Positions 1,576-64,000 of a stretch of 64,000 nucleotides of DNA are shown piece after piece. The DNA comes from an uncultured archaeon. Lineage in GTDB: Archaea; Altiarchaeota; Altiarchaeia; IMC4; QMZM01. The stretch lies in assembly GCA_964549685.1 (NCBI GenBank), contig CAZJVE010000002.1, forward strand, positions 82,859-146,858. The letters are read 5' to 3'. A program made the position numbers and the translations under genes. The first letter of the stretch is position 1. The number at the start of each line of letters is the position of its first letter. The notes below the pieces were generated by a model that saw only the letters and a list, made by a program, of their open reading frames with translations, did not search any database and had not been told where the DNA came from.

Positions 1576-4500
1576 CTATGTGCAAAGAGGGATATCTGCT
1601 GTATCCATCCCCATATACGGTGAGAAGCACGTATCCGAGTCATAGTCGTCTATGCAGCCATCCTGATTCAGGTCATGGCTTGAAGTATAACCTGGATCGC
1701 CCGCGCATAAGTCCAGGCTTATTTGCATCGACAAATAATCAGCATAATCAACCTCTGCATCGCCGTTTAGGTCTGGACACAGCACGCATCCCGTAGCAAT
1801 GCTCGTAGTTGTTAGGGTGGTGCTTGTCGTAGTGCTCGAAGCCCCGCTACTCCACGCGTTTATCAGGTCTATTACATCCGCCAGATTCGCCTGGTCATTG
1901 GACCAGAGAGTTATCAGGTCTATCACTTCTGAGAGACTCACGTCACCACAGGGTGCGCTGTCGCCAACCAGAGTGCAGTCCCCCGATATTGTTGTGCTGG
2001 TGCTTGTCGTAGTTGTGGTTGTAGCGCCCTCCTCGGCACATTCTATCTTGGATACATTGACCCCCCACACCGTGATGGAGCCGTCCGAGTCAAAGACGAA
2101 CTTCATGTCGTCCGTTTCATAGTACTCGGTCCAGTTGTAGTCCCCCCCGCTCCAGGTGCCGTCTATCGTATCCAGGCTGGAGCCCTCGCCCGTTTTTATG
2201 TAGAGGTAGTCGTACCCCGACTCCGTAATCGCCTTCATATATGCCCTCATTGACGAGCCGGAGCTGCATTGATATTCATAGGAGGCGCAGTCCAGGTAAT
2301 TCGAATACGGGTGCGGCGTTTCGAATGCTATGCTATGCTGCCCCAGGCCAAAGGAGCCGCCCGAATCCATGCTGCAGCCCGATGCGATGGTGGACGTGGT
2401 CAAGACCGTCGTCGTGCTCGTTGATGTGGATGTTGTCGATGTGGTTGTTGTGCCATTTATTGATGTCGATGTTGAGCTCGTGGAGGTGCTGCTTGTTGAT
2501 GTGCTGCTGCTAGTGGATGTAGACGTCGTGGTAGTCCCGGTAACCGTAACCGCGGCATTGCTACTCCTTACTGTCTGAAGTTGCGGGTTTCCGCTGTTGT
2601 AGGTCCTTATATCTACGGTGTCAAGCGTTATGTTGCTGACTCCTGCACCTATCGCCTCGAATTTCGCGGACGCTATGCCGGTCCCGGAAGAAGATATGCC
2701 GTCCGTCGACCTGACTCTCAGGTACTGCACCGTCCCCTGGGTATTGTTTATGGTCGGTCCGACATCGGTATATGCGGTTGAGCTATCCGCAGTCAGGAAA
2801 TCCCCTATCGTTAGCGAGGTGGCGTTCAGGACGTCCGGGTCAAAGCCGAGATGAATCTCCACGCTGTATGCATCTGAAAGCTGGCTGCTGTTAATCTCGA
2901 CGGAGAAGGTGTCTCCAGCCACGGCGGCTACGCTCGAGGGGTCGATGCTCACGTCCAGCAGGATTGTGCTTGTGGTGCTCGTCGACGAGGTGCTGGTCGT
3001 GGTCGTCTGGTTTGTTATGCTTGTGGTGGTCGACATTGACGTGCTGGTAGAGGTCGTAGTGCTCGTGGACGTGGTAACAACGCTGCAGTCATACGTGCAT
3101 CCGGCCGTCCCGCTGTCGCTCCAGGTGCTCGGGTTGTCGCACGTATTCTCGTCCCCTGAATTCCCCGATGTGGTGCCTGAAAACTTGAAGTCTGACTCCG
3201 TATTACCGCAGATTCGGTTCGAATCCACGTCATTGAACATCGAATCATGGAAGCGGATTCCGTTCGTGTTGTTGGATATGGTGTTGTTGGCGATTGTGTT
3301 ACTGGAGGAGCTGCTGAAAGAGATTCCCTTGTCGAAGTCCGTGATGATGCAGTTCCTTATCTTGTTGCTGGCCCTGAGGTGCATGTAGATTCCGGTGCCG
3401 GAGGTGTCCCCGTCCCCGTCAATTTTGTAGTTCTGGCAGTCGAAGATTATGCCGCTCTCGCCGAACGTAATGCAACTGCCGTCCTGGTCGGTTATGTCCG
3501 CGCCGAGGTTCACGGTCGAATAGGTGCCGTCCAGCTTCGTGGTGCAGTCCGCACAGGAGGTGCAGGTATTCCCTGTCGATACGGTCGTTGTCGTTGAGGT
3601 CAAGCTCGTGCTTGTAGATGTTGACGTGCTCGTCGATGTACTGGTCGAGGTGGATGTCGACGTCGTGCTACTACTACTGGTCGTCGTAGTGCCAGACGTA
3701 ACGACGCTGAATGCAAGGTCGTCATCATCTCCGTAGGTTCCGGTATAGCAGCTGCTTCCGCCACCCCACTTCCAGCCGATTATCGCCCTCACGTATTGGG
3801 TGCTACTGGCGTCATCCACGGTAAAGCTCGTGGAGTAAGTTCCTGTGGTTCCGGGGTAATCGCACTGGGAGTCTATAAGGAGCACTCTCCAGCCAGTGCC
3901 GTTATAATACCATATCTCTACTCTGTCATTGGAATCATAGCACTCCACCAGGACCTCCACGTTAACGGTGTCCCCCGCATTCACTCCGCAGGAGGAGCCC
4001 ACGTTCGTAAGGGTAATCCCCTCTATGTCGTCCTCGCCGTTGCAGCTCGCCGCCCCGGCGCAGGAATCCGCCAGGATATTGTCGGTGCAGCCGTTGCTCC
4101 CAAGGCACGCGCTCCCGCACTGGCACTGCGTAACTACGGTTGAGGTCGTGCTTGTAGAGCTAGTAGTTGATGTTGTCGTGCTGGTAGAAGACGTGCTGCT
4201 GGACGTTGTCTGGGTTATCGTGCTAGTGGTGCTGGTCGAACTCGTGCTAGTGGTGCTGTAGCAGTTAATCGTCTCGACATCGATGCCCCAGTCTGTTTGA
4301 GAACCGTCGGATGTGAACCTGAACTGGATGCTCCTCGTGTTGGGGTGCTCCCTCCATACGTAGCCCTGTGAATCCCCGCACCAGTACGTGCTTGTGCCGG
4401 TGTCGGCGTTTATTATGTAGAACTTGTCATAATTGCACGTGGAATGGTACTCAATATCGTGCTTTACATAGACCTTTCCGTAGTAGCTGGATGGGCAGGT

Positions 4501-6882
4501 ATAGGTGTTCGAAGAGCAATCCATGTTGTTGGGATAAGTGTGCGGGGTCTGGAAATCGATTGTATTGTCCCCGGCGCTCAGGCTTGCTGATGCAGAGGAG
4601 GTACACGACAGGATAGAGGTCGTGGTCGAGGTTGTCGTGGATGTGGTGGTTGTACTTGAGGTAGAGCTTGAGGAGGGGCAGTCCGCCTCGCAGTTGCCCG
4701 TGGTCTCGGCATTTGTAGCAGAGGAATCGCAGGTGCCGTCGCCGCAGTATTTCAGCTCATAGGTGAAGTCGAACAGCTCACCGCCGCCGTCTTCATATAC
4801 ATGGGCCGCAATGCTTATATCGCAGCCGGAAGAGCAGTACTCTTTACTGGTTATGTCGTTCCATGCATCGCTGTCCGCGCTGCCCGTGCACGTGGTGGCA
4901 CAGCCCCCCACGTAATTCGTTCCGCTGCAGTTCCCGCCTTCGTAGAGATCCGGGCTGGAGGATTCGTCGTTGTTGGAATCAATCCAGAGCTTATAGCCGT
5001 CGTCGGATGCGACCCTGTAGCTCAGATTGGCCAACCGCCCCGGGACATTAATGGTCTTCCTGTAGAATTTATCGCAGTGGTCGCAGTTCTCGTCCCACTC
5101 GTCTTTCAGGTCCACGTCGCTCCAGCAGGAGTCGTCATAGTTGAGCTCGTACCAGTAGTCATAGCCGCCGTCCCTCATGACCTCGTTATCGGAATACTCG
5201 TCGCACTGGTCGTTGTCCGCGTCGTATCTCACCGCCTTCCAGCCGCACCTCGGGTCTGTGGGATTCGTCAAGCACCAGGACTTCGAGTTCGTGACGGTGC
5301 CTACGCACTCCCCGTTGCAGCTAGCCCACCTCGTGGAATCGTTAACCGCGCAGTCGCTTCCGTCTATGGTGCCATCATCATCACAGTCGGAATCCTCGGG
5401 GCACGGGTCGTTCATGTTGGAGAGGCCGTCGCTGTCCAGGTCCGTGGAGTACGAGGTGTCGGTGTTTATCATCTCGTGGTTAGAGGCGACGGCATAGTAC
5501 TCAAAGCCGTTCTCCAGTGTGTAGGGGTAGGGGACCCCCACCCTGAGCCAGTATATTCCGTTCTCGCTGACCTGGTAATGGACGTGCTCCACGTTGTTCT
5601 TGGTGCTTCTCGAGGAGCTTATGAGGTTGTAATCGCCGTCGTAGAGGTAAAGATTAAAGTTGGTCAGGGATGCCGGGGTTCCTTTATAGCTCGAGACGTT
5701 GCGCCTCCAGACAAGCGTTGCCGTGATATTGGCGGGGGCGTCAGTCACGTAGACCTTATGGTACCTGTCGGTTGTGTCAGAGGCCAGTCTGGCATGCAGC
5801 TTGTAGCCTGACGGCTCCGTTGTCGCCCTGCTACTGTAGGTTGCGAGCGCCTCCACCGCGTCCACGAGCCCCGCCCCCTGCCACTGGTCCAGGGGGTCGG
5901 TGGTTGTATGCGACCAGCCACTCAGCTTCGTTGCAGAGTTCATGATTGCGGCCTTCATAAGGACCGGGTCGTTCGTCTGGCTATTCGTCTCAGCCCAGCT
6001 GAAGAGAAGCGCTGCCACGCCCGAGACGTGGGGGGTGGCCTGGCTGGTGCCTGTCCTGGGCGCGATGCTGTCTTCGGTTTCCCAGTCATTGTTGGACGAC
6101 CATATCTCCTTCCCCGGCGCCACAACATCGACCGTCGTTCTGCCGTCGTCCGTCTTGCCGTGGCCGCTCTCGTTGTCCGGAGAACAGCTATCAGCATCAC
6201 TACAACTTAGCACTGAGCCCACGGTAATGGCGTTGTAGTTGTCCCCCGGCGCCTCGATGTGCGAGTCCGGATTGTGCGTCTGGTCCCAGTTGCCTGCAGC
6301 GGTGACGAAGATGGTATCTCTCCCATACGATATATAGTCCACGAGTTGCGTCAGGTTAGAGCTGCCTGTCGTGCTCAGTTCGTCATAGTAGCGGCCCTGG
6401 CTCAGGCTGATTATCTCTGCGCTATTCGGGTAGTCTATGGCCCAGTTAATCCCGGCATAGAGGTAATCCCAGAGCCCAAATGCGGTTGAGGCCTGGACGT
6501 CTATTATCCCGGCGTAGGGTGCCACTCCCTTGTAGCTGCTGTCCTGGCTGACGATAATCCCTGCGACGTGGGTCCCGTGCCCCTCAATGTCCCCCTCGTG
6601 CCCGTCGGGGTCCGTGTTATTGTAGAAACTCCCCCAGTTGAGGACGGCGTTGATGTCGGGGTGGCTCCTGTCAATTCCTGTGTCGACGACCGCCACCGTG
6701 GTAACTAGTCCTCCGGACGTATTATCCTGGATTTCATCTGCTCTGATTAGGGATACTGACTCAATCAGACTTGTCTTGATTCCGCCTTCATCAGACACGT
6801 CGCCGGCATCTTCAACACCGACAACACCGCAGCTAAGAACCAATATACTGACTGCAAGAATGAATAAAACACCCTGTTTCAT
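1576..6882 (-). CDS. Secreted multidomain S8 subtilase: S8 + PPC-like + Ca-binding TSP3-like repeats + beta-sandwich + CUB x2 + beta-helix + cohesin-like + short dockerin-like module + canonical dockerin
   Basis: Signal peptide; triad VAVVDTG / HGTHVAG / GTSQATPHVSG and oxyanion AAGN; Thr/Ser linkers; C-terminal DLNGDAEVDYAD...DLNQDGCIDDYD. ATG at 6882 preferred over TTG at 6891. Confidence 0.9.
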   Translation of the reverse strand: MKQGVLFILAVSILVLSCGVVGVEDAGDVSDEGGIKTSLIESVSLIRADEIQDNTSGGLVTTVAVVDTGIDRSHPDINAVLNWGSFYNNTDPDGHEGDIEGHGTHVAGIIVSQDSSYKGVAPYAGIIDVQASTAFGLWDYLYAGINWAIDYPNSAEIISLSQGRYYDELSTTGSSNLTQLVDYISYGRDTIFVTAAGNWDQTHNPDSHIEAPGDNYNAITVGSVLSCSDADSCSPDNESGHGKTDDGRTTVDVVAPGKEIWSSNNDWETEDSIAPRTGTSQATPHVSGVAALLFSWAETNSQTNDPVLMKAAIMNSATKLSGWSHTTTDPLDQWQGAGLVDAVEALATYSSRATTEPSGYKLHARLASDTTDRYHKVYVTDAPANITATLVWRRNVSSYKGTPASLTNFNLYLYDGDYNLISSSRSTKNNVEHVHYQVSENGIYWLRVGVPYPYTLENGFEYYAVASNHEMINTDTSYSTDLDSDGLSNMNDPCPEDSDCDDDGTIDGSDCAVNDSTRWASCNGECVGTVTNSKSWCLTNPTDPRCGWKAVRYDADNDQCDEYSDNEVMRDGGYDYWYELNYDDSCWSDVDLKDEWDENCDHCDKFYRKTINVPGRLANLSYRVASDDGYKLWIDSNNDESSSPDLYEGGNCSGTNYVGGCATTCTGSADSDAWNDITSKEYCSSGCDISIAAHVYEDGGGELFDFTYELKYCGDGTCDSSATNAETTGNCEADCPSSSSTSSTTTTSTTTSTTTSILSCTSSASASLSAGDNTIDFQTPHTYPNNMDCSSNTYTCPSSYYGKVYVKHDIEYHSTCNYDKFYIINADTGTSTYWCGDSQGYVWREHPNTRSIQFRFTSDGSQTDWGIDVETINCYSTTSTSSTSTTSTITQTTSSSTSSTSTTTSTTSSTSTTSTVVTQCQCGSACLGSNGCTDNILADSCAGAASCNGEDDIEGITLTNVGSSCGVNAGDTVNVEVLVECYDSNDRVEIWYYNGTGWRVLLIDSQCDYPGTTGTYSTSFTVDDASSTQYVRAIIGWKWGGGSSCYTGTYGDDDDLAFSVVTSGTTTTSSSSTTSTSTSTSTSTSTSTSTSTSLTSTTTTVSTGNTCTSCADCTTKLDGTYSTVNLGADITDQDGSCITFGESGIIFDCQNYKIDGDGDTSGTGIYMHLRASNKIRNCIITDFDKGISFSSSSSNTIANNTISNNTNGIRFHDSMFNDVDSNRICGNTESDFKFSGTTSGNSGDENTCDNPSTWSDSGTAGCTYDCSVVTTSTSTTTSTSTSMSTTTSITNQTTTTSTSSTSTTSTILLDVSIDPSSVAAVAGDTFSVEINSSQLSDAYSVEIHLGFDPDVLNATSLTIGDFLTADSSTAYTDVGPTINNTQGTVQYLRVRSTDGISSSGTGIASAKFEAIGAGVSNITLDTVDIRTYNSGNPQLQTVRSSNAAVTVTGTTTTSTSTSSSTSTSSTSTSSTSTSINGTTTTSTTSTSTSTTTVLTTSTIASGCSMDSGGSFGLGQHSIAFETPHPYSNYLDCASYEYQCSSGSSMRAYMKAITESGYDYLYIKTGEGSSLDTIDGTWSGGDYNWTEYYETDDMKFVFDSDGSITVWGVNVSKIECAEEGATTTTTTSTSTTISGDCTLVGDSAPCGDVSLSEVIDLITLWSNDQANLADVIDLINAWSSGASSTTTSTTLTTTSIATGCVLCPDLNGDAEVDYADYLSMQISLDLCAGDPGYTSSHDLNQDGCIDDYDSDTCFSPYMGMDTADIPLCT

Positions 6883-6926
6883 TTTATTCAATTAAGGATT
6901 GGTTCCAGCACTATAAATCCTTATTG
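6883..6926 (-). promoter_or_regulatory. Putative archaeal promoter (TTTATAG box) shared with the paralogous protease gene
   Basis: Minus strand AATAAGGATTTATAG...AATCCTTAATTGAATAAAATG; near copy upstream of 10019. Confidence 0.5.
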
Positions 6927-6938
6927 ATTCGCTGCTGT

Positions 6939-9900
6939 CTAGCCCGAGGACCAGGCACTTATCAGGTCTATCACGTCCGCAAGGCTTGCGCCGTCCGCTG
7001 CCCACAGGCTTATCAGGTCGATTACTTCTGCCAGACCCACTTCGCCGCAGGGCGGGTCGTCTCCTACTAGGTCACAGCCCCCGGATATTGTGGTGCTGGT
7101 CGATGTCGTGCTTGTCGTCGTTCCTGCTATTGTCGTAGAGGTACTCGTGCTGGTTGATGTCGTAGTAGTCGCGCTGCACGCATAGGTGCATCCGGTCGTC
7201 CCGTCGTCGCTCCAGTCTCCCGGAATATCGCATGTGTTCTCATCGCCTGAGTTCCCTGAGTTGCTGCCCGAGAACGAGAAATCAGCCTCGGTGTTGGAAC
7301 AGACGGTGTTGGAATTCACCGTGTTGTACATGGCGCTCGAGAAACGGATTCCCTCAACGTTATTTGATACGGTATTGTTAACAAGGGTGCTGAAAGACGT
7401 GGAGCTGAGCAATATCCCCTTGTCAAACCCGGTAATGACGCAGTTTCTTATGGTACTGTCCGATTTCAAATGCAAATAGATTCCCGTTCCATAATCGTCT
7501 CCGTCCCCGTCGATTGTATGGCCCTGGCAGTCGAACTCTATATTGCCGTCGCTGAATGTGATGCAGTTCCCGTCCTTGTTCGATATGCTCGCAGTCAGCT
7601 GAACCGTGGAGTAGGTCCCGTCCAGCTTCGCGTTGCAGCCGGAGCATGAGCTGCAAGTATTCCCTGCTGACAATGTGGTGGTGGTCGATGTCGACGTAGT
7701 CGAGGTGGTCAATGTGCTGCTGGTTGACGTCGTTGTGCTGGTTGTTGTTGCGCCGGCGCAGGTATAGCTGCATCCCGTAACTCCTGTGTCGTTCCATCCA
7801 GCTACCGTGTCGCAGCTATTCTCGTCGCCGGAATTATCCGTGCCGTTGGCGAAGTAAAAATCCTCCTGCGTGTTGGAGCAGAAGCGGTTCGAACTTATGG
7901 TGTTGTTATCGGAGTTATAGATGCGGATTCCGTTTATGCCATTGGACTGTGCGGTGTTTGCCGTAATTGTATTATTGTCGGCTGATGTCCCAACGAACAT
8001 TCCCTGCCAGGTGTTCGAGTTCATGGTGTTGTTGGTTATCGTGTTGTAGCTGCCGCCGACATAAATCCCCCGGTATGTGTTGGAGTTTGCGGTGTTGTTG
8101 GCGATGGTATGGTAGTCGGACAGGAGAGACAGGTATATTCCGCCGTCGTTGTTTGATGCGTTGTTGTCCGTAATCGTGGCGCCGTCTGAATAGTATACAT
8201 AAATCCCATTCCCGCTGTTTGAGGTTAGGGTGTTGTTCAAAATGGTGTTGTTGTTCGAGCCATAGAGGTAGATGCCGTCTGAGAAACCAGTAATTATGCA
8301 GTTCCTCACGGTGTTGTTGTCTTTATAGAGCATGAATATTCCGTCATTTATGCCCGAACTGTCAATTGTATAGCCCTGGCAGTCGAACTCGACGTTGTCG
8401 GAATTGAAGGTGATGCATCTGCTGGGGTAATCTGTTATGTTCGTGGTCAGCTTAACCACAGTGTAGTTCCCGTCGAGCTTGTTGCTGCAATCCTCGCATG
8501 AGCTACAGGTCGTTTCCAACTGCCATGCGCTTGAGTTCAACGGATAATAATCTGCAGTATTATTCACTCCGTCCCCATCACAATCAGTGCAGTAGGTCAG
8601 GTCATAGTCCAGCATCGGCTTGTTGCTGGCGAGAGCATAGTATTCGAAGCCGTTCTCCAAGGCACCGCCATAGACATCGACGTTGAGCCAGTATATCCCG
8701 TTCTCAGTGGCCTCATAGTAAACGTGCTCCACATTGTCCTTGTTGCTCGCGGACCAGTTGAGCATCTCGTTCATGTCTCCGTCATAAAGATAGAGGTCGA
8801 AGTCCGTCAAATCTGCAGGAGTAAGATTGTAGTTGGTAACATTCCTCCTCCAGACAATGGTTGCCGTGATGTTCGTCGGGGCATCGTCCACATAGACTCG
8901 GGTATACCTGTCCGAGGCATTGTAGACAAGCCTTGAGTGCAGCAGGTAGCCCGTGGGGTCTGTCGACGGCCTGCTTATATAAGTCCTGTATGCATCAACG
9001 GCATTCAGAAGCCCGGCCCCCTGCGTCCTGTCCAGGGGCTCAAGGTGTGTATGGCTCCATCCCGACAGCTTCGTCGCAGAGTTCATGATTGCGGCCTTCA
9101 TAAGGACCGGGTCATTCGTTTTCGAATTCAAATCTCCCCAGTGGAAGAGCATTGCAGCAACCCCCGACACATGGGGCGTTGCCTGGCTCGTTCCGCTCTT
9201 CGTGGTATAATCGTCTATCTCCTCAGGCCAATCGCTCCAGTTATAGTTGCAGGACCATATGTCGTCCCCGGGCGCCAGGACGTCTATCTTCGTCCTGCCG
9301 TCATCCGTTACATTCCTTCCGCTGTCACTGTCCAGGGCCAGGCCCTTTGTCACCGAACCCACCGTGATTCCGTTATAGTTGTCCCCCGGAGCCTCGATGT
9401 GCGAATCTGGATTGTTCGTCGAGTCCCTGTTGCCTGCGCAGACTATGAACGGAGTATTCCTCTGATATGCGATGTAATCCACGAATTTTGTAAGCTCAAA
9501 ATTGCCTGTCGTGCTGACCTCGACATAGGACCGTGCCTGGCTCATGCTTATTATGTTCGCGCCGTTGTCTATGGCCCAGTTCACTCCCGCATAGAGGTAT
9601 TTCACTGCGTCATCCAGCTCCGTTATCGAGGCCTTCACGTTTATTATGTCTGCATTCGGAGCCACCCCTGGGTAAAGGTCGTCCTGGCTCGCGATAATGC
9701 ACGCGACATGCGTTCCGTGTCCCTGAATATCCTCGGTGCTCCCGTCGGGGTCCGCATCGGTATAGAAGTTCCCTCCATTAACAAGATTATTATCGATAGC
9801 GGGGTGCGTGCTGTTGACTCCCGTATCTACGACAGCGACCGTAGCCAGAGAAGCCCCCGATACGTTGCTCGTAATCTCATCGGCCCTGATAAGCCCCACG

Positions 9901-10019
9901 GAATTATCCAGGGCGGTCTTGATTCCTCCCCTGGACGCATCGTTGGAGTTCTCGGCACTGAAAGCACCGTAGCTCAGGACTATCAAACAAACCAGAACAA
10001 ATAAGTTCCTGTTTTTCAT
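6939..10019 (-). CDS. Secreted S8 subtilase with two beta-helix (NosD/CASH-like) modules and a C-terminal dockerin-like module
   Basis: Paralogue of the neighbouring protease (VAVVDTG, HGTHVAC, GTSQATPHVSG); GI-x-L-x-x-S-x-N repeats; ends CDLVGDDPPCGEVGLAEVIDLISLW...LADVIDLISAW. Confidence 0.9.
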   Translation of the reverse strand: MKNRNLFVLVCLIVLSYGAFSAENSNDASRGGIKTALDNSVGLIRADEITSNVSGASLATVAVVDTGVNSTHPAIDNNLVNGGNFYTDADPDGSTEDIQGHGTHVACIIASQDDLYPGVAPNADIINVKASITELDDAVKYLYAGVNWAIDNGANIISMSQARSYVEVSTTGNFELTKFVDYIAYQRNTPFIVCAGNRDSTNNPDSHIEAPGDNYNGITVGSVTKGLALDSDSGRNVTDDGRTKIDVLAPGDDIWSCNYNWSDWPEEIDDYTTKSGTSQATPHVSGVAAMLFHWGDLNSKTNDPVLMKAAIMNSATKLSGWSHTHLEPLDRTQGAGLLNAVDAYRTYISRPSTDPTGYLLHSRLVYNASDRYTRVYVDDAPTNITATIVWRRNVTNYNLTPADLTDFDLYLYDGDMNEMLNWSASNKDNVEHVYYEATENGIYWLNVDVYGGALENGFEYYALASNKPMLDYDLTYCTDCDGDGVNNTADYYPLNSSAWQLETTCSSCEDCSNKLDGNYTVVKLTTNITDYPSRCITFNSDNVEFDCQGYTIDSSGINDGIFMLYKDNNTVRNCIITGFSDGIYLYGSNNNTILNNTLTSNSGNGIYVYYSDGATITDNNASNNDGGIYLSLLSDYHTIANNTANSNTYRGIYVGGSYNTITNNTMNSNTWQGMFVGTSADNNTITANTAQSNGINGIRIYNSDNNTISSNRFCSNTQEDFYFANGTDNSGDENSCDTVAGWNDTGVTGCSYTCAGATTTSTTTSTSSTLTTSTTSTSTTTTLSAGNTCSSCSGCNAKLDGTYSTVQLTASISNKDGNCITFSDGNIEFDCQGHTIDGDGDDYGTGIYLHLKSDSTIRNCVITGFDKGILLSSTSFSTLVNNTVSNNVEGIRFSSAMYNTVNSNTVCSNTEADFSFSGSNSGNSGDENTCDIPGDWSDDGTTGCTYACSATTTTSTSTSTSTTIAGTTTSTTSTSTTISGGCDLVGDDPPCGEVGLAEVIDLISLWAADGASLADVIDLISAWSSG

Positions 10020-10063
10020 CTTAATCAATTAAGAATTAATCACGGGGCTATAAATTCTTATTG
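10020..10063 (-). promoter_or_regulatory. Putative archaeal promoter (TTTATAG box)
   Basis: Minus strand AATAAGAATTTATAG...AATTCTTAATTGATTAAGATG, same layout as 6883-6926. Confidence 0.5.
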
Positions 10064-12679: not shown

Positions 12680-12736
12680 AATCTCTATTTGCCTGCCAAT
12701 ATTTAAATACACAGAACTATCTTTTAATATAGCAAG

Positions 12737-13094: not shown

Positions 13095-13099
13095 GTTAT

Positions 13100-13372
13100 G
13101 GCGAACAGGTCCGGGAGTGAATCTACCAGCTGAACACCGGCAACCTGAGTACATCCTCGTTCCCGCTACCCCACCAGCACCCTCTAGAGAGGTTAGGGCT
13201 GCTCCCGTCAAGGTCTGACCCGGTTCCCCCGGAAGAAAGTCCGGTAAGACGAGAGGTCATAGTCAGAAACTCAGACCGAATGAACGGCTGATAGACTGCC
13301 TCCCGGACTTCAGCTTTCCCTAAAGGCGATTGGGAATTACAGAGGACGCCTACCCCTCCAGCCTAGTTCACC
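13100..13372 (-). ncRNA. ffs: Archaeal signal recognition particle (7S) RNA
   Basis: 5' GGUGAAC pairs with 3' GUUCGCC (helix 1); Alu domain UAGGCUGGAGGGGUAGGCGUCCUCUGUAA; helix 8 GGUCAG-ACCU-UGAC-GGG-AGCAGCC. Confidence 0.9.
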
Positions 13373-13463
13373 GTAAGATATGTGGATTATAGACCTAAAA
13401 ATTCCCAGCTATTTAAATCAGAAAACTAATATCTATGTATTCGTTTAATCTCACTGAAACAAG

Positions 13464-22524: not shown

Positions 22525-22637
22525 TATATATATTTATATATATCTAAGTATAAAAAGGTTTTGGTTTTTGCGGATTTGTACAAGAAGTGAATCCGAAAGG
22601 GATTAATACCTATGAGGCAAATACTTTAATGCTTAAA

Positions 22638-27205: not shown

Positions 27206-27330
27206 GCGACCATAGTGTAGTCTGGCTATCACTCTGGCTTGCCAACAGCCCTTTTCCGCCTTCGGCGCAAAAGCGTTGACGGAAAAACGGCAAACAGCCA
27301 GTGACTCGGGTTCAAATCCCGGTGGTCGCA
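27206..27330 (+). tRNA. tRNA-Gly(GCC) with a 51-nt intron at position 37/38 (27245-27295)
   Basis: Acceptor GCGACCA/TGGTCGC; anticodon stem CTGGC/GCCAG; T-loop TTCAAAT; BHB central helix TTGC/GCAA. Confidence 0.92.
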
Positions 27331-52754: not shown

Positions 52755-52833
52755 AGCAGCGCTACCTCTATCCTGAATGGGCAGTTTATAAGCCCCCACT
52801 CCATTATAACAGTATAAATATTGGGTAAATAAT

Positions 52834-54727: not shown

Positions 54728-54735
54728 AAAAAGCT

Positions 54736-54808: not shown

Positions 54809-54904
54809 TGAACTGACGTCAGTTCACACCGAAGCGGGTATGTGGGATTTCGCTGTCGCTCAATCCCACTTAACGCACTGTGAATTCACCGGGGAATTTC
54901 CCGG
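54809..54904. repeat. Palindromic intergenic element related to 12900-13094
   Basis: 18-bp palindrome TGAACTGACGTCAGTTCA; GTGGGATT...AATCCCAC hairpin; TGTGAATTC...AATTTCCCGG end. Confidence 0.55.
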
Positions 54905-55510: not shown

Positions 55511-55616
55511 TTTCATCACCCTTGCGGATTCAAAGATTACCTCACATCTCCATTGCGGGTGTATTCTATGATATGTCTTTTTATCATTAAAAACCAATTC
55601 TTAACATCAATATCAG

Positions 55617-56602: not shown

Positions 56603-56604
56603 AG

Positions 56605-56988
56605 ATGCCACACAAATGCGCCCGATGTGGAACAATCTACGACGACAATTCTCCTGAGCTCATAAACGGCTGTTCCTGCGGAGCCAGAGTGTTTCTGTAT
56701 CTCAAGGAGAGGCCGGGCAGGAGCGAGGAGGACACAATCGAGGAGCTGAAGATAAAGGAGATAGGTGGAGAAGATCTCAAGAGGCTGGACAGGGAGTTCG
56801 GCATGGACCTTGAGAAGACGGGGAGGACAATCCACCTCGACCTGGAGAACCTGCACCAGATTGACAAGGGGAGGTACAGGATAGACATAAAGTCACTGAT
56901 GAAGGGCGACCCCCTGATAATGAAGGTCGGTGACGGGGTCTACTACATCGACATAATCGATGCCATGAGCAAGGGGAGGAAAAGATGA
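56605..56988 (+). CDS. Zn-ribbon DUF2072 family protein (OapC-like)
   Basis: MPHKCARCG...GCSCG..FLY; G.Y.ID. Confidence 0.85.
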   Translation: MPHKCARCGTIYDDNSPELINGCSCGARVFLYLKERPGRSEEDTIEELKIKEIGGEDLKRLDREFGMDLEKTGRTIHLDLENLHQIDKGRYRIDIKSLMKGDPLIMKVGDGVYYIDIIDAMSKGRKR

Positions 56989-58313
56989 CAATCCATCCGA
57001 TGGAGTCCCGCTACGGGCGGGACGAGGTCAGGAGTATTTTTGATGAAGAAAAAAAGCTGGAGCTGATGCTGGAGGTCGAGGCAGCCCTTGCAAGGGCCCA
57101 TGCAAAGGCAGGGAACATCCCTGAGAAGGATGCTGCTGCAATCTCCAAGGCCAAAAAAGGCGTCAAAATCGAGAGGGTCAAGGCGATTGAGGCCGAGATA
57201 AACCATGACGTCATGGCGCTGGCCAAGGCCATGGCCGAGCTCAGCGGGGACTCCGGCAAATACGTTCATCTCGGGGCCACAAGCAATGATATTACAGATA
57301 CTGCGCTTGCATTACAACTTAAGGAATTCGTCGAATTCCTTTCCGAGGACCTGGTGAATTTGAAGAAGATTCTGCTCGGCCTCGCCAAGAAGCACAAGGC
57401 CACAGTATGCATAGGAAGGACCCATGCCCAGCATTCTATCCCGACCACCTATGGACTGAAGTTCGCAATATTTGCCTCGGAGGTTCAGAGGCATATTCAA
57501 AGGCTGGAGGAAACAAAACCGAGAATCCTCGTCGGCAAGATGTCCGGCGCAGTCGGAACCCAGGCCTCCTTCGGAAAGAAGGGCATTGAGATTCAGGAGT
57601 ATGTCATGGCGGACCTGGGGCTCAATGCCGCGATGGTCTCGAACCAGGTCATCCAGCGGGACAGGCACGCTGAATTTTTGCTGCTGCTGGCATTGATTAC
57701 AGAGACAATGAACAAGATTGCAACGGAAATCAGGAATCTGCAAAGGACTGAAATCGCTGAGATATCAGAGGGCTTCGGCAAGAAGCAGGTCGGCTCCTCG
57801 ACGATGCCGCATAAGAGGAATCCAATCATTGCCGAGAGGATATGCGGCCTGAGCCGGGTTATAAAGGCGGATGCCATGGCATCGCTTGACAACATCCCGC
57901 TCTGGCATGAGAGAGACCTGACGAACTCAAGCTGCGAAAGGGTTATCATCCCGGAGGCCTGCATCCTGACGGACTACATCCTGAACCTCAGCATCAACCT
58001 GCTGAAGAATCTCGTTTTCGATAAGGAGCAGATAGAAAAGAACCTGAACCTCTCGCAGGGGAGAATCATGGCCGAGTCCCTGATGATTAAAATGGTCGAG
58101 AAGGGAGTGGGCAGGCAGGTGGCCCACGAGATGCTGAGGAAGGACGCGATGAAGAGCCATGAGTCTGGAATCCCCTTCAGGGACGTTCTTCTGAACGACA
58201 AGAAGGTCATGAAGCACATGAGCGAGAAGGAGCTGACATCCGCCCTTAACCCAAAGAATTACACGGGGACTGCGAAAGAGCAGGTCGACAGGATTGTGAA
58301 AGAGTTAAGCTAG
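56985..58313 (+). CDS. purB: Adenylosuccinate lyase
   Basis: HLGATSND, GRTHAQ, GSSTMPHKRNP. Confidence 0.95.
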   Translation: MTIHPMESRYGRDEVRSIFDEEKKLELMLEVEAALARAHAKAGNIPEKDAAAISKAKKGVKIERVKAIEAEINHDVMALAKAMAELSGDSGKYVHLGATSNDITDTALALQLKEFVEFLSEDLVNLKKILLGLAKKHKATVCIGRTHAQHSIPTTYGLKFAIFASEVQRHIQRLEETKPRILVGKMSGAVGTQASFGKKGIEIQEYVMADLGLNAAMVSNQVIQRDRHAEFLLLLALITETMNKIATEIRNLQRTEIAEISEGFGKKQVGSSTMPHKRNPIIAERICGLSRVIKADAMASLDNIPLWHERDLTNSSCERVIIPEACILTDYILNLSINLLKNLVFDKEQIEKNLNLSQGRIMAESLMIKMVEKGVGRQVAHEMLRKDAMKSHESGIPFRDVLLNDKKVMKHMSEKELTSALNPKNYTGTAKEQVDRIVKELS

Positions 58314-59695
58314 CCCGCCCAGCTGTTTATTGCATCTACCACTGCGGATAGTGAGACCTCTTCGTTGGCCCATCTGTTTATCATGTTCACGACTTCGGCC
58401 AAGGTTACCTCGCCGTCGCAGTTCTCATCCGCCAATGGCTCAAAGCTCGGCGCACCGCAGACGAAGGCATCCAGGTAAGGGATGTATACTACCTCAGGCA
58501 GGCCAGCATCATCATAGTAGTCATAGATGTATACGTCAATATCCTGTTTGTTGCTGGTGCCCCACCAGTTGTTTATCATCATTATCTCCTCGCTCGGCAT
58601 TGAGTGCTCTATGTCGATTGCCCTGACGCCGTATTCGAAATTGTCATGCAGGTTGTTATACGAATACTCTCCAAGATACTCATTCACGAATATGCCGATG
58701 CTGTTCAGGGTTATGGTGTTGTATGTAATCTCGCCTCCATCGACCATGTCCTCGACGTAGATGCCTACCGAGTTGTTGTAGATGAGGTTGTAGCTCAGGC
58801 TCACCTCGCCGTAGGCGTCGTTTACGTCAATTCCATAGGTGTTGTTATAGAAGGTGTTGTAGCTGACCTCGGTCCAGCCCATGACTGCCGCACCGTGCGT
58901 GCTTCCATGCACCGTGTTGTTGCTGAAATAGACGTATGACGCCGCTTCTTCTCTCCCTCTCAGCTCGGGGGTGCAGTTGTTGAATTCGTTCTGGGTTGCA
59001 TAAATGTGTATGCTGGGGAATATACTCCTCATTATGGCGTTGCTGCCGCAGTTTGTGAATGTATTGTTGCTTATGTATATGGTGAAGTTCCCGCCCCTTA
59101 TCTCCATATCCCCATCATAGAATATGGAGTCCATGACGTCAACGGAGGACTCGTAGGTCTCCAGCCCTGTGTTGTTAAACCTGCAGTATCTCAGGCTATT
59201 GTTTCCGCTGATGCTGGTGTATTCGAAGTAGACCACCCCTCCCCCGGAGGAGACGAATTCAATCGGGCTTATGGAGTTCCCCTCGGCTATGAGGCCGCCC
59301 TCCATGTCAAGGCGGTAGCTGCCGTTGAACTGTACCACTACGCCAGGCCCTATTGTCAGGGTGCTGTTCTCCTTTACCTCAATGTCGTTCAGCAGGAGGT
59401 AGGGGCTGTCGGCCAGAGTCCATGTCGTGTCTCCCTTGATGTCCCCTGTCACGTAGGTGGGAATCAGCGTCGATGTGGTTGAGGTGGATGTTGTGCTGGT
59501 TGTTGATGTGGTTGAGGTCGTTGAAGTTGATGTGGTCGAGGTGCTTGTCGTTGATGTCGTTGAGGTGGATGTAGTAGATATTGTGCTTGTTGATGTTGTT
59601 GAAGAGGTGCTTGTGGAGGTGGTCGTCTGAGCGGCAACACCAATGCTAAGGAAAAGCAGCCCAATCAATAAGAAGAGTGCCTTGCGCTTAATCAT
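58310..59695 (-). CDS. Secreted right-handed beta-helix protein with Thr linker and dockerin-like C-terminus
   Basis: Signal peptide; TTWTLADSPY, LTIGPGV, NNWWGT; ADENCDGEVTLAEVVNMINRW. Confidence 0.85.
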   Translation of the reverse strand: MIKRKALFLLIGLLFLSIGVAAQTTTSTSTSSTTSTSTISTTSTSTTSTTSTSTTSTSTTSTTSTTSTTSTSTTSTLIPTYVTGDIKGDTTWTLADSPYLLLNDIEVKENSTLTIGPGVVVQFNGSYRLDMEGGLIAEGNSISPIEFVSSGGGVVYFEYTSISGNNSLRYCRFNNTGLETYESSVDVMDSIFYDGDMEIRGGNFTIYISNNTFTNCGSNAIMRSIFPSIHIYATQNEFNNCTPELRGREEAASYVYFSNNTVHGSTHGAAVMGWTEVSYNTFYNNTYGIDVNDAYGEVSLSYNLIYNNSVGIYVEDMVDGGEITYNTITLNSIGIFVNEYLGEYSYNNLHDNFEYGVRAIDIEHSMPSEEIMMINNWWGTSNKQDIDVYIYDYYDDAGLPEVVYIPYLDAFVCGAPSFEPLADENCDGEVTLAEVVNMINRWANEEVSLSAVVDAINSWAG

Positions 59696-59727
59696 ATTAG
59701 GAATTAGCTCATGAGCGTATAAATCTC

Positions 59728-62700
59728 TCATCCTTCAACAGCATACCTCAATCTTCCGCCATATTCCTGTCTATAGACAACATGCGCTTTGTCTGTGCTG
59801 TCAACAGCAAGCTCGGCATAGGTCCCGATCTGTTCGTCATCGCTATTACCGCCATACTGGATTGTCCGGGTCGTCCAGCTGGTATCGCCGGAATTCTTAA
59901 CCGCGACCTTCATGTAAGAATCCAGATAGGTTGCACTCATCGCCTTTCTATGATAGGCAATCAGGATATTATCGTTGCTGTCAAAAGCCAGAGAGGTATA
60001 TAGTCCTGCTCTCAGGCTGTCGTCAATCATGTCCGGGCTTGCGGACCAGGCGCCGCTGCCGATTCTTGAGGAGAACATCAGGGCCCCGTCATCGCCATCC
60101 CCGCTGTATCTCGCATGATAGGCGATGTGGGGGGTGCCGGAACTGTCAACTGCAATCGAGGGGTACTGCATCGTATCGCTTGAATCCACCAGTTCCTCCG
60201 ACCAGGTGCTGGAATCCGTTGCTCTGTAGATATACTTCAGGAAGCTGTTGGAGTCGACGAATGCGATGTGTATCACGCCGTTTGCAACGACTATCGAGGT
60301 GTCCGCGCTCGTCACGCTGGTATCCACCGTCTCTATTGTCCATGACCCTGAACCAGCTGGTTTGCTCGCCAGGAGCAAATCGTAACTGGTCCTGTCCAGG
60401 TAGGCAATATACACGACGTCGTTCTCGTCTATGTCCATTGAGGTGTACTGGCCGAGGTTGTTCGTGGCCGATGAGGCAACGGTTTCGGTGGAGAACGACC
60501 CTGCACCCGCCGCCTTGTAGGCGTATCCCAGGTTATAGCCTGTGAACGTGGGATAGGCTATGTGAACCCCTCCGTTGCTGTCAACTGCTATTCTGGTATA
60601 TGGGTTTGTCTGGTCGGCATAAACCAACTCCCTTTCCGACCAGGAACCGTCGGAATTGACCATGTAATAAACGCCGTCGGTATAGGTGCTGTAGGCATTG
60701 ATGTAGTGCACCACATGGATGTCGTCATTGCTGTCGATGGCCAGGTCAGCATATCTTCCGCAGCTTGAGGTGGACCACGTATCAATAGTAGAATCGGTCC
60801 AGGAGGCCAATGTATGATCAAGAGTTGTAGTGGCCGATGCGGTGGTTGTGGTTGATGTCGTAGCCAGTGCAGTAGTTGTTGTTGTCGCAGGTGCCGTTGT
60901 CGTAGTCGTTGAAGCACCGCCGGCCCAGGCGTTTATCAGGTCTATTACATTTGCAAGAGTCGCACCATCCCCTGCCCAGAGGTTTATCAGGTCTATGACC
61001 TCTGACAGAGTCACCGTGTTGCATGGGGCCTCGTCTCCGACGAGGGTGCATTCTCCAGCTACGGTCGTGGTCGTCGATGTGCTGGTGCTGGTCGAGGTGG
61101 TTGTGCTGGTTGTCGAGGTGGTTGTGGTGGTAGCTGCAGTGCAGTCATACGTACAACCCGTCGTCCCGGTGTCGCTCCAGGTGCCGGCCTCGTCGCAGAT
61201 GTTCTCGTCACCGGAGCCTCCCAGAGCTGAAGAAAGGTAAAGATCCGAGATTACGTTGGAGCAGACCTGGTTAGAGTTCAGCGTGCTGTAGTTCGAAGAG
61301 AGCAGGTAAATGCCGTAGCGTCCATTGTAATCCGCTGTGTTGTCGGTCAGGTAGTTGTTGTGCGAGTAGAGTGGCAGGATTCCGTCATACGTGTTGTTAT
61401 TCACCTGGTTTTGTCCTATCGTGTTGTTGTTCGCATAAGCAAGAAAGATTCCGTAAATGTCGTTATGGCTCATCGTGTTGCCCGTGACGGTGCTGTCATT
61501 GGCGAAATATAGATATACGCCCAGATAGTTGTTGGTTATTGTGTTATTGCTAAAGACGTTGCTGGAGGAATTAGTAAGGAGCACTCCGTAGCATGTGAGG
61601 TCGCATGAGTTGTTGCTCGCCAAGTTGTCCGTCAGGGTGTTGTCGTCTGACCTGTAGACCACGAGCCCGATGGTGTTGTTCTCCAGCGTATTGCCCGTGA
61701 CCGTGTTGCTGTCCGAATAATTGAGATAGATGCCGTGGTCGAACAGGGAAACCTCGCAGTTTTTGACTGTGTTGTTTGAGTTGCCCTGGAGGAAGATTCC
61801 ATAGGTGTCCGATACATAGGGCCCCTGAATGCTATGGCTCCGGCAGTCGAATTCCATGTTGTCTGCCGAGAATTCTACGCACGTTGCGGAGGTGCTGATG
61901 TCAGCAGTAAGATAGACGGTTTCGTAGCTGCCGTCCAGCTTTGAGGTGCAGTCGTTGCACGAGGTGCAGGAAGCCTCCCCCGCCGCAAGGGTTGTCGTGG
62001 TGCTCGTAGATGTCGTGGAGGTCGAGGTCGTGCTGGTCGTCGTTGAGCTCATCTGCTCTACGGCGAACATGTAGAGTGCTGAGCCTGAGCTCTCGTCGTT
62101 GGATATGATAAGGACTGCGTCGTCGTAGGTCGAGCCGAACCCGTTCACGAAAAGCTCGCCGTTCTGGATGCTGTCCAGCGGCATGTATTCCACCGCCTTT
62201 GATGAGGCCGTTAACTTTGCCACGGATACGTTGAAGTTCCCGTCATTTGCCCCGTAGAAGGACAGATTCAGGGTGCTTCCATCGCCCCCCGTGAAGTTGA
62301 TGTATTCGGCGGCCCAGTAGTTCACCGTACTCAGGGCGGACGTGGGATAAGAGGAGAATGCGTTTACCACCGGCACGGTAAAGTCGAGGTCAAGGTAGCC
62401 ATAGAGCCCATCTCCTATCGTGGTGTCGTCAAGCACGTTCGCTATCGTCCAGTCGTTGAATATCTTGGTGAAGGTTTCCGAGTAGCCCCTGGTGGACAGG
62501 GCATGGTTTATGCCGGTTATGCCGATGTCCGTCTCGGAGACTATCTCCGTTATCGTCAGGTTGCCGCCGTAGTGGTTGGAGATATAGAGCATGAATAGAT
62601 AGCTCTTTCCATAGTCATAGATATTGCCGCCCCAGTTTGTCAGGGACTGGCCGTAGTTGGAAGCGAAGTCGTTGATGTCGCTTGTTGCGTGGCCGTAACC

Positions 62701-63519
62701 GTTGATATATTCGGCATAGACCGCACAACCCTCGTCGACCCATGCTTCTTCATCCGCGTCGTGGTACCAGTGAATCATGTGCTGGAATTCATGAGCAAGA
62801 GTCGAGTAGCTGTTGTTCACTCCCTCGTCGATGGAGTAGAAGTCGTCGTGGTCGCTTGTTGGAGTGTAGTTAACATCCCCTGTACCGGGATAGCTCCCCT
62901 TCTCTATCAGCGGGAAGGTGTCGATGTAGAACATCTTGCGCTCGTTGCTGTGGTAGCCCCAGTAGGATGCATAGGCTTCGGTATATTCGTTCATGGACCA
63001 GAAATAGCCGGCAATATAGCCTCCCCCGGTATAGCTATTGGCGTAGCTCTCGTCTATGTCAGTCAGCAGTATTGTTATCATGGAGTCGCCGTCCACGCCC
63101 TCGGGCTCCTCCTCGCCGAAGTAGAGCCGGTCATTTACGTATATGGAGTCGAATTCTGCCGCTACCTGGTTCACGTCGTCCTGGGTTATGTAGCCGGGCA
63201 GTTTTCCTGCATCGGGAGCCGTGTCCACCCACACTGCATTTCCTGCCTGGTCCTTGGTCTGGACGTAGACGTATGCCACGGAGGTGATGTTCCTGATAAC
63301 GGCGTTAATCTCGAACCATGTGTCCTGCTCGTTAATCCAGAAGCTTTCGGTGTCCCCAACGCTTTTGGCCTCTTTGATTGACATGGACCTTATGCCCGTG
63401 TCCCGCACGCTGAGGGCCGGAACCGGAATCTCCGGGAGCTCATGCGTCCTGCATCTCCCCTCGGCAGCTGCAGGCATGCAGAGGCCCATTAGGAGCATAA
63501 GAATAACCAGTCTTTTCAT
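59728..63519 (-). CDS. Secreted HExxH metalloprotease (M30/M6-like) with beta-helix, internal dockerin-like module and C-terminal beta-propeller
   Basis: STLAHEFQHMIH...WVDEGCA..AE; YGKSYLF..Y; repeats of IAVDS.G..HIAY. Confidence 0.85.
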   Translation of the reverse strand: MKRLVILMLLMGLCMPAAAEGRCRTHELPEIPVPALSVRDTGIRSMSIKEAKSVGDTESFWINEQDTWFEINAVIRNITSVAYVYVQTKDQAGNAVWVDTAPDAGKLPGYITQDDVNQVAAEFDSIYVNDRLYFGEEEPEGVDGDSMITILLTDIDESYANSYTGGGYIAGYFWSMNEYTEAYASYWGYHSNERKMFYIDTFPLIEKGSYPGTGDVNYTPTSDHDDFYSIDEGVNNSYSTLAHEFQHMIHWYHDADEEAWVDEGCAVYAEYINGYGHATSDINDFASNYGQSLTNWGGNIYDYGKSYLFMLYISNHYGGNLTITEIVSETDIGITGINHALSTRGYSETFTKIFNDWTIANVLDDTTIGDGLYGYLDLDFTVPVVNAFSSYPTSALSTVNYWAAEYINFTGGDGSTLNLSFYGANDGNFNVSVAKLTASSKAVEYMPLDSIQNGELFVNGFGSTYDDAVLIISNDESSGSALYMFAVEQMSSTTTSTTSTSTTSTSTTTTLAAGEASCTSCNDCTSKLDGSYETVYLTADISTSATCVEFSADNMEFDCRSHSIQGPYVSDTYGIFLQGNSNNTVKNCEVSLFDHGIYLNYSDSNTVTGNTLENNTIGLVVYRSDDNTLTDNLASNNSCDLTCYGVLLTNSSSNVFSNNTITNNYLGVYLYFANDSTVTGNTMSHNDIYGIFLAYANNNTIGQNQVNNNTYDGILPLYSHNNYLTDNTADYNGRYGIYLLSSNYSTLNSNQVCSNVISDLYLSSALGGSGDENICDEAGTWSDTGTTGCTYDCTAATTTTTSTTSTTTSTSTSTSTTTTVAGECTLVGDEAPCNTVTLSEVIDLINLWAGDGATLANVIDLINAWAGGASTTTTTAPATTTTTALATTSTTTTASATTTLDHTLASWTDSTIDTWSTSSCGRYADLAIDSNDDIHVVHYINAYSTYTDGVYYMVNSDGSWSERELVYADQTNPYTRIAVDSNGGVHIAYPTFTGYNLGYAYKAAGAGSFSTETVASSATNNLGQYTSMDIDENDVVYIAYLDRTSYDLLLASKPAGSGSWTIETVDTSVTSADTSIVVANGVIHIAFVDSNSFLKYIYRATDSSTWSEELVDSSDTMQYPSIAVDSSGTPHIAYHARYSGDGDDGALMFSSRIGSGAWSASPDMIDDSLRAGLYTSLAFDSNDNILIAYHRKAMSATYLDSYMKVAVKNSGDTSWTTRTIQYGGNSDDEQIGTYAELAVDSTDKAHVVYRQEYGGRLRYAVEG

Positions 63520-63806
63520 TCGAATTCCTCCACCGCTATTGCCTCGCCAAGGGATGTCCCGCAGAATTCGTCGGTCAGCTCCCCCCTTATCGTCAGGGTC
63601 TGCCCCTGCATCTGTTGGAGCTCCTCAGCCAGAGGGCCGGTAAGGCAGTAGCTCCCGTCCTCTGTCTCAATAGCAAGCTCTGTAAACGGTTCGTTCCCGG
63701 TAACGTAGATTCTGCCCCTCACCTCAATCCCGGTGTCCGGTATCCCGCTGTCCTGGACGCAGGCAGATAAAAGGGCGACGAGCGCGATTAGGGCTATCTT
63801 TTTCAT
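63516..63806 (-). CDS. Small lipoprotein
   Basis: MKKIALIALVALLSAC lipobox; GNEPF motif; stop overlaps the protease start. Confidence 0.7.
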   Translation of the reverse strand: MKKIALIALVALLSACVQDSGIPDTGIEVRGRIYVTGNEPFTELAIETEDGSYCLTGPLAEELQQMQGQTLTIRGELTDEFCGTSLGEAIAVEEFE

Positions 63807-63916
63807 ATTAGAATATGTGTTATGGAGGTATAATAACATTACTTAAACATGGAAACCCTGCTCGATATCGATTAGATTATCCACTCACCCCACGTACCAT
63901 AGTCCAGATTACTCCT

Positions 63917-64000
63917 TCACCCCGCCCAGGCATTAATAAGGTCTATTACGTCCGAGAGACCTGCATCGTCTGCTGCCCAGGCGTTTATCAGGTCTATCAC
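63917..64000 (-). CDS. 3' end of another dockerin-like-tagged protein (runs off the window)
   Basis: ...VIDLINAWAADDAGLSDVIDLINAWAG-stop. Confidence 0.85.
   Translation of the reverse strand: MIDLINAWAADDAGLSDVIDLINAWAG

Follow-up and report, generated by a model that had tools for sequence, protein, structure and literature searches.

The described systems closest to the one reported here are the group-2 truncated dockerins of Ruminococcus flavefaciens (RfDoc2) and the cohesin/dockerin proteins of archaea. According to PMC12270676, RfDoc2 has five members in one genome, its binding to cohesin was shown experimentally, and in the complex (PDB 9GVB) a single cohesin accommodates two adjacent copies; dockerins from other species that were halved artificially are also still able to bind. 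Archaeal cohesin/dockerin proteins, known from Archaeoglobus fulgidus and anaerobic methanotrophic (ANME) archaea, are described in PMC9012536 as non-cellulosomal and of open role, and the same source, citing Peer et al., reports archaea with such domains without multi-cohesin scaffoldins. In the present work, we analysed a stretch of 64,000 nucleotides (hereafter the window) from an uncultured archaeon of the Altiarchaeota (GenBank assembly GCA_964549685.1, contig CAZJVE010000002.1, positions 82,859 to 146,858), in which seven proteins share a short module. We read this module, with about an even chance of being right, as a surface-docking tag, namely a lineage-specific cut-down dockerin derivative that would hold secreted proteins at the cell surface or together. 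To our knowledge, apart from membrane anchors and archaeosortase, little is understood of how archaea retain large secreted enzymes and adhesins at their surface. Cohesin/dockerin proteins have been on record in archaea since 1999, and we know of no established role for them.

The window is part of contig C2 of a genome of 1.166 Mb, assembled in 27 contigs and estimated to be about 85% complete. A hidden Markov model (HMM) was built from the seven window copies of the module and run on the six-frame open reading frames (ORFs) of the whole genome. Cohesins were scored with Pfam Cohesin (PF00963, cut-off 24.1 bits) and with a lineage-specific profile of 14 cohesins, of which the cohesins of P0001 and P0004 are themselves rows. 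The module carriers of the window and their relevant parts are as follows.

1576–6891, minus strand: P0001, carrier 1 (1771 aa), with signal peptide, S8 peptidase, beta-helix repeats, cohesin, internal module and a classical-type dockerin-like tail
1639–1773, minus strand: two-loop classical-type dockerin-like tail of P0001 (PF00404, 21 bits, cut-off 22.9, E 4.9e-4)
1843–1995, minus strand: module copy 1, internal in P0001, C..PCG loop type, followed by a Thr-rich linker (HMM 93.3 bits)
2536–2952, minus strand: cohesin of P0001 (PF00963, 29.0 bits at 2545–2937; lineage profile 136.8 bits)
6939–10028, minus strand: P0002, carrier 2 (1029 aa), with S8 peptidase, NosD/beta-helix and C-terminal module (6942–7094)
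10058–12712, minus strand: P0003, carrier 3 (884 aa), with MAM-like domain, C25 peptidase and C-terminal module (10061–10210)
22587–24848, plus strand: P0004, carrier 4 (753 aa), with two LTD domains, cohesin, cupredoxin-like domain and C-terminal module (24687–24836)
23982–24359, plus strand: cohesin of P0004 (PF00963, 38.1 bits at 23982–24266; lineage profile 113 bits)
58310–59731, minus strand: P0005, carrier 5 (473 aa), with beta-helix-like repeats, no Pfam family and C-terminal module (58313–58459)
59728–63519, minus strand: P0006, carrier 6 (1263 aa), with HExxH metalloprotease-like N-terminus, NosD beta-helix, internal module (60916–61068) and beta-propeller-like tail
63917–64000, minus strand: module copy 7, C-terminal end (second helix region; HMM 63920–64000), the gene running on into contig C12

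The first-pass annotation of the window had claimed that seven proteins share the module, and this was borne out: all seven copies are in frame on real ORFs, and it had located them correctly. The six complete copies reach domain scores of 77.6–93.3 bits (i-E 5.1e-22 to 6.4e-27), far beyond chance. Its description of the carriers was also accurate. Three catalytic classes are represented, with Peptidase_S8 in two window carriers (E 8e-44 and 4e-42), Peptidase_C25 in one (E 4e-51) and an HExxH protein with a HEFQH motif, whose match to MXAN_6640_HExxH is sub-threshold (E 8.5e-8, 32.3 bits, cut-off 140); the non-catalytic carriers bear LTD, cupredoxin and beta-helix domains. Signal peptides and the lack of a C-terminal transmembrane segment had been noted as well, and each of the six complete carriers has a single N-terminal hydrophobic segment and no further membrane segment. 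Likewise, the two cohesin-like domains that had been proposed both exceed the Pfam cut-off, and both sit on module carriers. The carrier of copy 7 (L005) is an 889-aa HExxH/NosD protein with the module at its C-terminus and a paralogue of P0006 (69% identity over 500 aa). The end of C2 (window 63946–64000) is identical to C12:1–55 over exactly 55 nt inside the module repeat, which indicates that the two contigs join and that the assembly probably broke on this repeat.

Counted across the genome, the family goes well beyond the window, with 23 modules in 22 ORFs (whole-ORF E 6e-27 to 7e-11). The module lies no more than three residues from the stop codon in 19 of the 22 carriers; in the other three (P0001, P0006 and L006) it is internal and is followed by another linker and further domains. 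L011 carries two modules in tandem. One N-terminal hydrophobic segment and no second membrane segment were found in 19 carriers, while a contig end, a run of N or an unclear start interferes with the count in the remaining three; a C-terminal hydrophobic segment is present in none of the 22. Based on Pfam, six carriers are clear peptidases (three S8, one C25 and two HExxH), and one more has a sub-threshold CHAT match (23.3 bits, cut-off 24). The others include one MAM/PPC/TIG protein, many NosD/beta-helix proteins, one protein each with Laminin_G/pentaxin, a PQQ propeller and FG-GAP, several proteins without a Pfam family, and, on contig C3, a giant adhesin of 3389 aa with 23 CarboxypepD_reg stretches, PKD, LTD and cohesin. 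By a crude count, the module is borne by 17 of the 24 ORFs that have at least 250 aa, a signal-like N-terminus and a Thr/Ser linker. This suggests that it marks much of the large secreted proteome and not proteases only; it is therefore a general tag of the surface secretome, not the assembly device of a dedicated protease machine. In some carriers, a domain of about 110 aa that starts with RDLP and contains GEVKWLLW alternates with modules, as in P0011 and P0046 (from the representative library) and L008 (own genome); its only match is a weak one to NPCBM_assoc, in L008.

The tails that bear the module follow one order: a Thr/Ser-rich linker, a Cys, a 12-residue loop led by G-D and ending in Glu, a V-I-D-x-I-x-x-W helix, five variable residues and a repeat helix L-x-D-V-I-D-x-I-x-x-W. 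The whole module takes about 45 residues, and its two helices (xLxEVIDxIxxW and xLxDVIDxIxxW) repeat one motif. The canonical loop D-x-[DN]-x-D-G-x-[VI]-x-x-x-E was found in 7 of 22 own modules (DSDCDG in P0003, and DLDCDG, DENCDG, DFDGDG, DLNGDG, DMDGDG and DENSDG), three of which have a Cys at loop position 4 together with the upstream Cys. The other 15, the P0002 tail among them, have G-D-x-x-P-C-[GDN], or a form one residue longer, with the upstream Cys, and the calcium-ligand pattern is absent from them; ligand positions 3 and 5 are replaced in most copies. The same holds among the best 149 global carriers (163 modules), drawn from 693 matching clusters: the xPC[GDN] type accounts for 140 of the 163 modules and the canonical type for 12. 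At the tail of the giant adhesin, the loop reads C..SPCG in the source genome, whereas its two congeners have DVDGDG and DVDGNG; the presence of both types at an orthologous site indicates that they replace each other. The first-pass annotation had described the first loop as kept or disulfide-stapled; DxDxDG loops and Cys-flanked xPCG loops are indeed seen, whereas the disulfide itself, which would stand in for calcium, is what we infer from the Cys pair bracketing the loop.

The modules are very acidic (mean net charge −10.3), with three Lys or Arg in total in 21 modules. The AlphaFold2 model of a single module has a predicted local distance difference test score (pLDDT) of 92.7, with coil or loop at residues 1–19 and helices at 20–31 and 37–49. 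No helix is modelled ahead of the loop, into which the Thr-rich linker runs directly, and this corresponds to the F-hand arrangement of dockerins, not to an EF-hand. The model of the natural tandem at the tail of L011 (8-row alignment) has a pLDDT of 59.2 and a predicted template-modelling score of 0.48, too poor for judging how the two modules pack.

Compared with RfDoc2 as described in PMC12270676, the module has a similar length (about 40–45 residues), a single calcium-type loop and a predicted helix-loop-helix topology; it is likewise C-terminal on secreted modular proteins, one of which in RfDoc2 also has a cohesin-like module, and it may likewise be read as a dockerin minus one repeat. 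RfDoc2 is bacterial and cellulosomal, whereas the module is archaeal and occurs in 6–26 copies per genome in four genera. The second helix of RfDoc2 is the extra helix 4 of group-4 dockerins, whereas in the module it is a copy of the first. Most module loops lack calcium ligands and have a Cys pair instead, and no sequence similarity to 9GVB was detected. With classical type I dockerins (PF00404) and the archaeal proteins, the module shares an F-hand loop-helix, acidity and a place behind linkers at the C-terminus of secreted multi-domain proteins, as well as the single cohesin on the same protein seen in archaea. It differs in having one loop and not two, in lacking the inter-repeat helix, in its shorter length (about 45 residues, against about 60–70), in being missed by the Pfam model and in occurring in far more copies per genome. 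Its second repeat is a helix with a shortened, ligand-poor lead-in, unlike the two calcium-loop repeats of a dockerin. Seven of the 22 own copies share with EF-hands a 12-residue loop followed by a helix; unlike EF-hands, the module has no entering helix, is extracellular and C-terminal after a linker, and in most copies lacks ligand positions 3 and 5.

To compare it with dockerins by profile, an alignment of 21 modules was set against 13 two-loop dockerins, 12 from genomes of the same family and the tail of P0001, which aligns with the dockerins of the family and scored 18.8 bits for PF00404 in a separate Pfam scan. This tail, under the Pfam cut-off, is the sole classical-type dockerin of the genome. 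Using hhalign, the two alignments matched at 77% probability (E 2.1e-5, score 28.4), with the first and second module helices pairing with dockerin repeats 1 and 2, respectively; the inter-repeat linker and most of loop 2 are lost in a 16-column gap. Column-shuffle controls, 60 per alignment, gave mean scores of 8.2 and 9.1 and a maximum of 17.1, none of the 120 reaching 28.4, and reversed alignments scored 7.8–7.9. A PDB profile search (E<=10) returned 13 chains, among them EF-hand proteins from E 0.0058 (the best) to 0.05 and the R. flavefaciens ScaA dockerin chain 5n5p_B at E 0.017. Neither 9GVB nor 8AJY is among these 13, which suggests independent truncation. In the ESM Atlas, the nearest named clusters include one with 98% Dockerin_1 members (score 0.87), which we take as a lead only. 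On the other hand, a Pfam scan of six module stretches at E<=10 placed no Dockerin_1 on the module, and EF-hand_1 matched two copies with 12–13 bits (E 0.06–0.15).

Based on these results, a relationship of the module to dockerin/F-hand repeats is moderately supported; since the loop is common to EF-hands, support for dockerin homology is likewise moderate. The minimal dockerin of the first-pass annotation thus stands in part: the family relationship, the kept first loop and the two like helices agree with it, and fold searches, for which the module is too small, showed no dockerin likeness. An EF-hand proper was rejected on the lack of an entering helix in the model and on the EF-hand_1 scores, which are below the cut-off of 25.4 bits. 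An Excalibur-type domain was also rejected, as no such Pfam match was found. In addition, the representative library contains P0047 (497 aa), which is built of repeated two-loop dockerin/EF-hand-like units (GDLNGDGKVTLDEI...); five of its stretches are matched by the module profile, and it also matches the family dockerin profile (E 2.4e-27). Judging from its sequence, P0047 may be an intermediate between classical dockerins and the module.

The distribution of the module was assessed at several levels. The genus of the source organism comprises three genomes, its family 22 genomes in ten genera, and the phylum sample 61 genomes. Counted throughout the Altiarchaeota, the module occurs in 10 of the 61 genomes, which have 6–26 copies each and all belong to a single family, where they represent four of the ten genera; it was found in none of the 12 remaining genomes of the family and in none of the 39 genomes of other families (E<=1e-5). 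Among GTDB species genomes, a five-row module alignment confirmed three loci, all in metagenome-assembled genomes named Candidatus Altiarchaeota or Altiarchaeia archaeon. Of 1.84 billion cluster representatives, the 21-module profile matched 693 at E<=1e-3, of which 303 also pass E<=1e-10. In 138 of the best 149 global carriers the module ends no more than 12 residues from the C-terminus, and ten of the 149 have more than one module, as do several ORFs of the genome G024, where the modules are in tandem. Of ten global carriers checked for a name, nine have none and one is a 'hypothetical protein'. A word-index homologue search with the module region of P0003 returned P0003 itself only. A literature search, made mostly outside subscription journals, gave no paper naming both Altiarchae and cohesin, and in one of the two papers with both Altiarchae and dockerin the terms stand in unrelated passages.

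Homologues without the module indicate what may stand in its place. C-terminal membrane anchors and archaeosortase signals of the PEF-CTERM/PGF-CTERM type share its place following a Thr/Ser stalk on homologous surface proteins encoded by related genomes, and differ from it by a hydrophobic helix with a basic tail. In four module-bearing genomes the module closes the C25 peptidase, while a homologue with 36% identity, from a module-free genome, has at its end a Thr/Ser stalk followed by a hydrophobic helix and then a basic, Lys-rich tail. The NosD homologue L066 of another module-free genome (G021:C23) has the same Cys-rich beta-helix cap, followed by PEF, a membrane helix and RKR, and an archaeosortase-family gene (G021:C23:27631-28344) lies about 2.4 kb from it. 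Within the source genome, at least nine secreted proteins have C-terminal membrane anchors, and proteins with LTD, NosD, CarboxypepD_reg, PQQ or FG-GAP domains end either in such an anchor or in the module. From the two homologue pairs and this paralogue pattern, the module appears to take the place of the anchor. The giant adhesin with its module tag has a membrane-anchored counterpart in L083 (G000:C4:12331-25665, 4445 aa), which carries NosD, CARDB, six CarboxypepD_reg stretches and three LTD domains ahead of a membrane anchor at the C-terminus. HExxH homologues were found in the own genus only. Two further NosD homologues of a module-free genome, L061 and L073 (G023:C4 and G023:C15), have a short shared tail (..GWNLIS.P...) after the cap, which may be another C-terminal motif or the start of a frameshift-cut domain.

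Archaeosortase (PF09721) was found neither in the source genome nor in the two other genomes of the genus; in the family, 3 of the 10 genomes with the module have it, as do 6 of the 12 without, and this mixed distribution led us to reject the idea that archaeosortase and module are complementary. With no hydrophobic helix or basic tail on the module and no archaeosortase in the genus, any attachment would have to be non-covalent.

We set out the surface-docking reading as follows. Each module has one F-hand (a loop and its exiting helix), a five-residue turn and a second helix copying the first. A minority of copies keep the DxDxDG...E ligands, and most have two ligand positions replaced and a Cys pair around the loop. 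The carriers are Sec-exported and lack a membrane anchor; at their C-terminus, behind a Thr/Ser-rich stalk, the module would act as a non-covalent docking tag that retains proteases, beta-helix and lectin-like proteins and giant adhesins at the cell surface or links them to one another. The three single cohesins would be the best candidate receptors in the source genome, possibly with two modules per cohesin, by analogy with the truncated dockerins of R. flavefaciens.

Several observations weigh against this reading. No Pfam or NCBIfam model matches the module, and PF00404 finds none of the 23 copies at E<=1 in the whole genome, its sole match being the tail of P0001. The absence of 9GVB from the PDB matches counts here as well. 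The likeness to dockerins is concentrated in the EF-type loop and helix that true EF-hands also have, and the case for dockerin ancestry, rather than for another EF-hand protein, rests on context, which is like that of dockerins: the module adjoins a cohesin in the giant adhesin of the genus, and cohesins adjoin classical dockerins in other genera of the family. P0001 has both the module and a classical-type dockerin, so the two are probably not redundant. As for the exchange with membrane anchors, the homologue comparison covers two proteins; two other NosD homologues of module-free genomes stop at the beta-helix cap, and the S8 homologues of such genomes are uninformative, one running off its contig and the other being a short subtilase without a C-terminal extension. 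No Pfam cohesin was found at E<=0.001 in 4 of the 10 module-bearing genomes, namely G011 (97% complete, 26 modules), G013 (77%, 18), G020 (81%, 11) and G024 (80%, 11), where the lineage profile gave nothing but one 17-bit match with stop codons. Cohesin therefore cannot be the general receptor. LTD, a further domain common to cohesin carriers, was considered as an alternative receptor domain and rejected: 21 of the 22 family genomes contain LTD, with or without the module, and LTD thus does not track it.

A bolder form of the docking proposal, which we regard as rather doubtful, is that half a dockerin has turned into a calcium-independent, disulfide-stapled mini-tag with a mostly non-cohesin receptor of its own, giving this clade of Altiarchaeota a new surface-display system that mounts about twenty proteases, lectins and adhesins per cell beside membrane anchors and archaeosortase.

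The first-pass annotation had gone in another direction, proposing that the module is a minimal dockerin with cohesin as its receptor and that such pairs build a dedicated extracellular, cellulosome-like complex for protein degradation. We consider this unlikely, although part of the evidence agrees with it. Three cohesins were identified in the genome by Pfam, one each in P0004, P0001 and the giant adhesin, so that all of them are on module carriers. Throughout the genus (three genomes), the giant adhesin has as its last two domains a cohesin and the module with no linker between, which is the usual archaeal cohesin-dockerin arrangement. With one weak classical dockerin in the genome, at least two cohesins have no classical partner, and the six clear peptidases among the carriers belong to three catalytic classes. 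Cohesin binding by truncated single-loop dockerins is also on record (PMC12270676). It is thus plausible that cohesin is a partner of the module in the source genus. A dedicated complex, however, is weakly supported. No multi-cohesin scaffoldin was found in the genome with the Pfam and lineage cohesin profiles, the lineage profile returned the same three cohesins and no further one, and three cohesins, one per protein, face 23 modules. The cohesin-bearing proteins have no membrane segment beyond the signal peptide and thus no cell anchor, and 16 of the 22 carriers are not clear peptidases. Outside the source genome, the four cohesin-less genomes, one of them nearly complete and rich in modules, stand against such a complex, as does the single cohesin among the best 149 global carriers. 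In the family, Pfam cohesin occurs in 6 of the 10 module-bearing and 2 of the 12 module-free genomes, and in the genera g2 and g8 cohesins share an ORF with adjoining classical dockerins, more obvious partners for them than the module; classical dockerins number 0–3 per genome in the family, far fewer than modules. A complex prediction of the P0004 cohesin with the module (alignment headed by the C25 peptidase tail) and one calcium ion, at 1:1 only, gave an ipSAE of 0.02 in both runs, against a threshold of 0.32, which weighs neither way.

It is improbable, in our view, that the module has no separate receptor and self-associates, its acidic hairpins pairing, perhaps through divalent cations, and cross-linking a surface matrix or biofilm. 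Single EF-hands are known to pair. Self-association would account for the cohesin-less genomes, and it agrees with the natural tandems of L011, of G024 and of the ten global carriers mentioned above. In the solved truncated-dockerin complex, the two dockerin copies are in extensive contact (PMC12270676). However, the strongly negative charge would make pairing without a partner or cations electrostatically unfavourable, and the calcium ligands are missing in most copies.

The least probable reading, which we hold to be very unlikely, is that the module is not for docking but is a C-terminal export or sorting signal, for crossing or attachment to an outer envelope layer, or a stabilising calcium/disulfide cap: its strong C-terminal preference, its restriction to Sec-exported proteins and the lack of archaeosortase in the genus, where another sorting route could be needed, fit this, but it is internal in three own carriers with linkers and domains after it, occurs in tandem, is predicted as a compact folded unit and coexists with archaeosortase in three of the module-bearing genomes, and a sorting signal was rejected because none of the 22 carriers has a C-terminal hydrophobic helix or basic tail.

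Some further features of the window are worth recording. The window is archaeal by its content: an archaeal signal recognition particle RNA lies at 13099–13373, and aIF-2 and an ATP-dependent DNA ligase are among the genes.

13099–13373: archaeal signal recognition particle RNA

At 27206–27330 (plus strand), a tRNA model of 71 positions matches over 125 nt (48.8 bits), and the match is probably an archaeal tRNA with an intron. In P0001, a Cys-rich domain of about 120 aa occurs twice, at about aa 760–880 and 1500–1620, and shows the motif F(Q/E)TPH(T/P)YPN..DC; it has no Pfam match at E<=0.01 and is CUB-like by eye only. Between the two HExxH paralogues, an ORF of 107 aa (63516–63839, minus strand) has a lipoprotein-like signal, the hydrophobic stretch of which ends in LLSAC. 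Its stop codon overlaps the start of P0006, and the stop codon of P0006 overlaps the start of P0005 (59728–59731), which suggests one operon. The lipoprotein-like product might be an inhibitor or chaperone of the neighbouring metalloproteases.

The module described here is unannotated and offers a simple handle for defining the surface proteome of an uncultured lineage. It would represent a second, independent natural example of a half-dockerin, and the exchange of a calcium loop for a Cys pair is a testable proposal. If the docking function is true, a calcium-independent docking tag of 45 residues would also be of interest for designer enzyme scaffolds.

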